From Escherichia coli (GTDB lineage Bacteria > Pseudomonadota > Gammaproteobacteria > Enterobacterales > Enterobacteriaceae): a stretch of DNA of 410 nucleotides. Positions 1 to 410 of this stretch are shown here, piece after piece. The stretch's first letter is position 1, and every line of letters starts with the position of its first letter. The notes beneath the pieces were generated by a model that saw nothing but the letters and a program-made list of their open reading frames with translations, made no database searches and had not been told where the DNA came from. The position numbers and the translations under genes were made by a program. Location: the NCBI RefSeq assembly GCF_003334305.1, contig NZ_QOWS01000079.1. One strand, given 5' to 3'.

Positions 1-410
1 CTGGATATCGATATCCCGTATGCGACGGACCCGGCAGGAAACCGGCTGCCGGACCCGGAACTGCACCCGGACAGCACCCTCACGGCGTGGCCGGATAACC
101 GCATCGCGGAAGATGCGCACTATGTCTACCGCTACGATGAATACGGCAGGCTGGCGGAGAAGACGGACCGCATCCCGGAAGGGGTGATACGGATGCACGA
201 CGAGCGGACCCACCACTACCACTACGACAGCCAGCACCGTCTGGTGTTCTACACGCGGATACAGCACGGTGAGCCGCAGGTGGAGAGCCGCTACCTCTAT
301 GACCCGCTGGGCCGCCGGACGGGAAAACGGGTGTGGCGGCGGGAGCGTGACCTGACGGGGTGGATGTCGCTGTCGCGTAAACCGGAGGAGACCTGGTACG
401 GGTGGGACGG
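1..410 (+). CDS. Rhs-family / YD-repeat protein, internal core fragment (5' and 3' partial); polymorphic toxin shell region
   Basis: Frame 1 (codons starting at nt 1) is open across all 136 complete codons, while + frames 2 and 3 contain stops (frame 2: TGA at 185 and 353; frame 3: TAA at 96 and 378, TGA at 138, 300 and 348). Translation: [137 protein letters not shown]. It carries YD-repeat motifs (consensus roughly xYxYDxxGRL) at nt 13-48 (degenerate, [12 protein letters not shown]), 121-153 ([11 protein letters not shown]), 211-246 ([12 protein letters not shown]), 289-333 ([15 protein letters not shown]) and 394-410 (WYGWDG, cut by the window edge). Codon third positions are strongly G/C-biased (CCG, CTG, CGC, GAC, TAC), as expected for a real high-GC coding frame. 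The match to enterobacterial Rhs core is from memory, not a database search. The specific paralog cannot be assigned, so no gene symbol is given. Confidence 0.85.

Follow-up and report, generated by a model that had tools for sequence, protein, structure and literature searches.

The DNA studied here, a window of 410 nt from Escherichia coli, is a segment of a common E. coli gene for an Rhs toxin container, the RHS element core protein. It is highly probable that the window as a whole encodes five YD hairpins of the late wall of an Rhs cocoon, with a Pro/Asp-rich spacer that forms a loop in one elongated unit. Nucleotide positions below refer to the + strand of the window, and residue numbers refer to the host protein unless stated otherwise.

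Gene identity and genomic context

Frame 1 of the + strand is open over 136 of 136 codons. An overlapping gene in another frame or on the other strand was rejected, because both other + frames (2 and 3) carry stop codons and the complete ORFs elsewhere in the window, in a listing that does not cover ORFs running off its ends, are of 55 aa and 28 aa only. Many E. coli chromosomes carry the window with 100% identity. Of the 5,426 complete E. coli genomes, 3,720 had a match, with a median of 3 places each, and the genes under these matches are always annotated as RHS element core protein or RHS repeat-associated core domain protein. For strain 504838, the window (L001:6001-6410) lies inside a CDS (L001:3277-7527) of 1,416 aa, and its translation corresponds to residues 909-1044 of this host protein. 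The placement within the Rhs core that the preliminary description had asked for was obtained; the window alone aligned to NF041261 (RHS_core) at model positions 909-1044 of 1261 with E = 4.3e-93. The host CDS reached 2,633.8 bits against this NCBIfam equivalog (cut-off 2,000) over model positions 1-1261. Additionally, a Pfam scan of aa 301-1416 gave 15 PF05593 matches with E < 0.01 at aa 324-906, the range to which the confident Pfam repeats are confined, and TIGR01643 gave 161.2 bits over 7 stretches of the host CDS. Further downstream, PF03527 matched aa 1153-1188 and the Rhs-associated core domain (TIGR03696) matched aa 1179-1256 with 82.9 bits. A DPxG...D(P/S)xG(L/W) autoprotease motif is readable in the C-terminal region of the host protein, outside the window.

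According to the annotation of strain 504838, hcp and vgrG lie upstream of the host CDS and "dsORF-h1" lies downstream. The annotated hcp and vgrG are directly upstream; the T6SS linkage, toxin encapsulation, and self-cleavage are putative. The downstream annotation suggests an RhsH-type tip. Compared with E. coli RHS element core proteins (RhsA-H type, NF041261), the window showed no difference and is a member of this family; its DNA is identical, and the host CDS has a GC-rich core followed by an AT-rich tip and an hcp-vgrG context. Within L001:3001-8000, the Rhs core has a GC content of 62-64%, and that of the tip and dsORF region falls to 35%, which is the classic signature of a composite Rhs element. 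The C-terminal toxin tip (aa 1257-1416, L001:7045-7524) contains an HEFAH (HExxH) motif and a weak match to Pfam Peptidase_M91 (E = 0.002, 18.9 bits), which hints at a metallopeptidase-like toxin. Directly downstream of the Rhs element, at L001:8249-12092, IS66-family and ISAs1-family transposase genes and fragments are clustered.

An Rfam scan of both strands of the window (E <= 1) gave no match, so an RNA element is absent. A search of the window for DNA repeats found only a weak inverted repeat of 12 nt and two short direct repeats with two copies each, and the repeat structure of the window is at the protein level only. A 15-nt direct repeat at window 98-112 and 167-181 (14/15 identical, 69 nt apart) encodes NRIAE and DRIPE. 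The two peptides lie 23 codons apart, each behind an Asp at the beginning of an expanded connection, and they may mark equivalent second-turn positions of successive units or reflect chance.

Irregular register of the YD units

The frame 1 translation contains the five strings that the preliminary description had placed at nt 13-48, 49-120, 121-153, 211-246, and 289-333, each at exactly these coordinates. Only 1 of 100,000 residue shuffles yielded three Y.YD motifs in 136 aa, so their presence is not due to chance. The aspartates of the YD units lie at window aa 10, 46, 76, 101, and 136 (residues 918, 954, 984, 1009, and 1044), with spacings of 36, 30, 25, and 35 residues; in the regular zone of the host protein, the aspartates (667, 688, 708, 729, and 753) are spaced by 20-24 residues. 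G residues recur every 9-11 aa in the Rhs core (Jackson et al., PMC2935791), and the two longest Gly-free gaps of the whole shell, 921-957 and 969-998 (36 and 29 aa), both fall in the window.

Profile searches gave the same picture. Pfam RHS_repeat produced three weak partial matches in the window (E 0.2-3.8), covering only the YxYDxxGRL centre of the model, and matched neither the first unit nor the spacer. With TIGR01643, YRYDEYGRL was the sole match in the window (20.1 bits, cut-off 15.8). A repeat HMM that we built from twelve regular units of the host protein and ran with filters off and no E-value limit matched 951-960, 975-989, 999-1016, and, weakly, 1039-1049, and at this maximum sensitivity it found nothing in 913-948. 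The Pro+Asp content of the spacer is 0.33 vs. 0.10 for the shell. Collectively, these results bear out both the irregular register and the Pro/Asp-rich spacer, and neither Pfam, TIGR01643, nor the self-built HMM presented the repeats as regular with the spacer as a normal repeat that has diverged.

All three clear repeats (nt 121-153, 211-246, and 289-333) were modelled as a strand, a 5-aa DxxGR-type turn, and a second strand and are YD hairpins. Their HMM support is weak with Pfam, and the first of them passes the TIGR01643 cut-off. Unit 2, with its AEDAH lead-in, spans aa 944-964 (nt 106-168) and is a canonical YD hairpin with strands at 949-953 and 959-964, a DEYGR turn, and a partial Pfam match at window aa 42-56. 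Unit 3 (aa 977-996, nt 205-264) has strands at 977-983 and 989-996, a His in place of the turn Gly, and a weak Pfam match at window aa 72-82. Unit 4 (aa 997-1024, nt 265-348) is a long-armed hairpin with strands at 999-1008 and 1014-1024, and its D1009 and R1013 are at least 90% conserved in alignment A1 (47 sequences).

Three further elements had been missed in the preliminary description. A fifth unit, TWYGWD/GDRL, is cut by the 3' end of the window; its first arm, EETWYGWD(G), occupies aa 1037-1044 (nt 385-410, strand 1037-1044) and continues as GDRLTT, and TWYGWDGDRL is conserved across relatives (0.64). The other two are expanded loops. Loop 2 (aa 965-976, nt 169-204) comprises 12 aa, has 47% gaps in relatives, and is a clade-specific expansion. 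Loop 3 (aa 1025-1036, nt 349-384) also comprises 12 aa, includes a 3-residue strand, and has a conservation of 0.16 with 47% gaps.

Predicted fold of the host protein

An AlphaFold2 model of residues 301-1291 had a mean pLDDT of 85.8 and a pTM of 0.80. Foldseek aligned this model to Tse5 (8cp6), RhsA (7q97), Tse15 (8uy4), and Advenella VgrG-Rhs (8qja) with TM scores of 0.72-0.78, and a closed beta-cocoon is the predicted fold of the host protein. The modelled wall is very regular and consists of a strand, a 5-aa DxxGR-type turn, a strand, and a turn of 2-6 aa, with a median connection of 5 aa. Before residue 1077, the longest non-strand connection of the shell wall is 915-948 (34 aa), which contains the spacer, and the second longest is 965-976 (12 aa); both are inside the window. 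The segment 915-948 contains no modelled strand of at least 3 residues. Isolated beta-bridges occur at 917, 923, and 945, so the segment may partly fill a strand slot in the model. The assignment of 915-948 as a loop is a prediction of this model, whose pLDDT is 77-84 across 921-950. The reading of the window as a variant-repeat or loop region of a beta-shell of the Rhs/teneurin/Tc type, put forward at the outset, is thus supported by a score above the RHS_core cut-off, by the agreement of the model with Rhs cocoons, and by the 34-aa connection.

Outside the window, aa 1077-1149 (L001:6505-6723) form a modelled insertion of 73 residues with five helices that interrupts the beta-shell before the PF03527 region. 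No sequence alignment to a solved Rhs structure spans this insertion. The model of the relative P0268 has a shorter helical segment at the same site.

A conserved turn in the first unit

To assess conservation, relatives were taken from a search of 50%-identity cluster representatives, as a closer homologue search gave only matches at least 85% identical, which is too shallow for this purpose. The conservation alignments were drawn from the closest ~150 cluster representatives, and block scores were calculated on 26 sequences filtered to at most 80% identity. Alignment A2 comprises 26 Rhs cores with 30-52% identity to P0268, which served as the reference sequence.

Unit 1 begins with the "up" strand LDIDIP (aa 909-914, nt 1-18; DSSP strand 609-614 of the AlphaFold2 model), whose conservation in relatives is 0.19. 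Its turn motif follows at aa 915-924 (nt 19-48). The Tse5 structure contains 40 hairpins with the consensus YDXXGRLV, in which DXXGR forms the turn (PMC10684867). In these hairpins, the Tyr faces the cavity, N frequently stands in for the R and R for the Leu inside the barrel, and the consensus ends with an exposed V, L, I, A, or T (PMC10684867). The first unit of the window fits this consensus in register as T917-D-P-A-G-N-R-L924, with Y replaced by T, R by N, L by R, and V by L. Except for the replacement of Tyr by Thr, these substitutions are those common in Tse5. This register assigns the canonical Tyr slot to T917 and not to Y915, and the earlier use of that Tyr as the skeleton anchor of the first repeat does not stand.

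At the first-unit site, relatives at 30-45% identity have [YWF]x[YF]DPAGNRL. The turn block is the most conserved in the window, at 0.75 vs. 0.47-0.64 for the visibly canonical units. Moreover, only six columns are invariant over the whole protein in A2, and four of them are the D, A, G, and N of D-x-A-G-N (window 28-42, aa 918-922). The motif is not universal, as P. protegens RhsA has YDAAANLL. The description of this repeat as degenerate therefore holds against the generic consensus, with no cover of nt 13-48 by Pfam, TIGR01643, or the self-built HMM, but fails across relatives, among which it is the most conserved block. In the sequence alignments, the first unit is a conserved signature of its Rhs subfamily despite its degeneracy.

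Two relatives showed individual peculiarities. In P0121, the module from the first-unit turn motif to WPDNRI is present twice (aa 237 and 589), which is due either to duplication within the core or to an artefact of assembly. In P0225, a frameshift apparently runs through the first unit.

The spacer as part of one elongated unit

The spacer is composite. A variable Pro/Asp-rich linker of 13 aa (aa 925-937, nt 49-87) has a conservation of 0.24, is modelled as coil with a pLDDT of 77-78, and is an indel hotspot. It is followed by the conserved WPDNRI (aa 938-943, nt 88-105; conservation 0.73), which is probably a shortened second, non-YD turn. In A2, the conservation of the N and R of this motif is at least 90%, and GNRV in Tse5 and HNKL in RhsA align to it. 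The spacer had been described as lacking a YD motif. This holds in that the HMMs find no YD unit there, but the spacer is not free of motifs: its variability is confined to the 13-aa linker, and WPDNRI is conserved.

The segment from DPAGNRx to xxDNR[IVL] varies in relatives and measures 6-7 aa, 12-14 aa (the enterobacterial clade), 16-23 aa, or 41-47 aa. The longest class is a large group of relatives with a shared DWxxxVxxxLxDPxFNLL insert, which is carried by P0142, P0171, P0175, P0184, P0222, P0226, P0229, P0237, P0250, and P0268. In the model of P0268 (pLDDT 77.3), the shell wall again makes its largest excursion at the spacer site; the insert has a pLDDT of 42-60 with one short helix at 680-686, and the equivalents of E. 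coli Loop 2 and Loop 3 comprise 4 aa and 2 aa.

The strands that flank the spacer, 909-914 and 949-953, are both "up" strands ending in YD-type turns, and the spacer thus takes the place of both the return ("down") strand and the second turn in one elongated unit. No regular strand is modelled here because four prolines fall within a stretch of 15 residues. Even the shortest relatives devote 29 residues to the unit containing the spacer; therefore, this unit is intrinsically long-armed. We consider it very likely that the spacer lies within a single elongated repeat with a loop excursion and is neither an inter-repeat linker nor an extra repeat.

The spacer could also be read as a normal YD repeat that has drifted beyond recognition, so that the register would be regular and the region would contain six or more ordinary hairpins. 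D918 and D940 (in WPDNRI) are indeed separated by 22 residues, the canonical period, DNRI resembles a shortened DxxGR(L/I) turn, and the NRIAE/DRIPE direct repeat hints at equivalent positions in successive units. However, only 14 residues separate D940 from D954, which is too short for a hairpin, and in the shortest relatives the whole interval is reduced to the 29 residues given above. Pfam, TIGR01643, and the self-built HMM gave no match at any threshold, the model has no strand of at least 3 residues in 915-948, where the four prolines fall within 15 residues, and the second, non-YD turn of Unit 1 is the better reading of WPDNRI. Tested as a two-strand hairpin repeat unit, the spacer failed on three counts, namely the lack of an HMM match, the lack of a modelled strand, and an interval that is too short, and an extra complete diverged repeat was rejected on the same grounds. 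We regard a drifted repeat as very improbable.

Comparison with known beta-shells

Tse5 (8CP6), P. protegens RhsA (7Q97), Tse15 (8UY4), and Advenella VgrG-Rhs (8QJA) are three-turn beta-cocoons, as is the E. coli model. These solved T6SS Rhs cocoons are 23-32% identical to the E. coli protein in sequence alignments that span the window. At the window site, Tse5 has WAGNRVERIAGNRYRFDALGNL, and RhsA has FAYDAAANLL...HNKLLTYQDKRYRYDAFGRM. The interval of RhsA at the spacer site is 4 aa shorter than that of E. coli and does not contain the Pro-rich linker. Additionally, the E. coli loops 965-976 and 1025-1036 are shorter or absent in the solved T6SS Rhs cocoons.

According to Kielkopf et al. (bioRxiv 10.1101/2024.02.26.582050), it is mainly in their loops that Rhs cores differ. 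In their description, loop 1120-1199 of S. bongori exceeds its counterparts in other cores and is what chiefly sets this core apart from that of Advenella; S. bongori 1141-1204 folds into four strands at a place that is occupied mostly by a big loop in the Advenella core. A phmmer alignment places E. coli residue 930 at approximately S. bongori 1180 and the YD of Unit 2 at approximately S. bongori 1205-1208. Loop 1120-1199 of the S. bongori PAAR-Rhs core (8QJB/8QJD) is thus at the spacer-equivalent site, directly before the hairpin equivalent to YRYDEYGRL. It comprises ~80 residues with four strands, whereas the E. coli connection comprises 34 residues modelled without strands. In a nearby region of Advenella Rhs, AlphaFold2 predicted a big loop and the crystal showed a beta-strand (bioRxiv 10.1101/2024.02.26.582050). 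By analogy with this precedent, the strand content at 915-948 could be under-predicted by AlphaFold2.

The BC cocoons of Tc toxins and the YD shells of teneurins have the YD-repeat beta-shell in common with the E. coli model (Foldseek probability 1.0). They are far more distant from it, with TM scores of 0.3-0.58 and identities of 12-16%, and Tc cocoons have four turns rather than three (PMC8765631).

Discussion

Based on the model and the alignments, each YD unit forms a beta-hairpin whose turn consists of the DxxG(R/N) residues, and the hairpins would spiral into a closed cocoon that holds the C-terminal toxin, as expected of a T6SS-associated container. The window represents the late shell wall, before the 1077-1149 helical insertion and the C-terminal plug/autoprotease, where the arms of the units are stretched and the repeats reach their greatest length and lowest regularity. 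Unit 1 retains an intact, highly conserved turn in T-D-P-A-G-N-R-L, and the spacer is very probably its modified return arm, running from the proline-rich, indel-tolerant linker through the turn-like WPDNRI into the next YD strand. Conserved C-terminal Rhs repeats spiral inward and thereby seal the cocoon (Günther et al., PMC8765631), and the irregular arm lengths may accommodate the change in geometry at this inward spiral. We infer that the loop is solvent-exposed and that its sole role is structural, as wall or decoration.

The invariance of DPAGN and of the NR of WPDNRI seems stronger than a plain wall element would need. In a second alternative, the DPAGN...(W)xDNR pair around the indel hotspot is a functional site, for example a hinge, a surface that binds a partner, or a place of contact with the plug or toxin. 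Four of only six invariant columns in 26 cores are the D, A, G, and N, conservation of the N and R of WPDNRI reaches at least 90%, and many relatives carry a conserved 41-47 aa insert at exactly the spacer site. However, purely structural demands account for the conservation of Gly and Asp in YD turns, P. protegens RhsA lacks the Gly, and the insert of P0268 is modelled at low pLDDT with a single short helix. Furthermore, a literature search returned no occurrences of DPAGNRL or WPDNRI, and none of the matches to DPAGN was relevant. We therefore give a functional site only a slight chance. The same slight chance attaches to the more specific proposal that the family-wide insertion site (6-47 residues, ~80 in S. 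bongori) bracketed by D-x-A-G-N and (W)xDNR serves as a functional port or hinge of the cocoon and not as passive decoration. Its contacts could include a delivery partner, the plug, or the toxin; the evidence does not call for this reading. The structural reading, five YD hairpins with a tight conserved turn, a long proline-rich excursion in one elongated unit, and two clade-specific loops, is the best supported.

Both the gene family and the kind of irregularity found here are already known, and irregular YD units and variable loops have been documented in structural papers on Rhs cocoons. The gain is at the level of annotation and consists of a residue-level placement of the window (RHS_core 909-1044) and a corrected register of the first unit. 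It was also observed that the region's best-conserved motif escapes the generic repeat HMMs of Pfam and TIGR. Finally, the delimited indel hotspot would be a sensible place to engineer insertions into Rhs shells.
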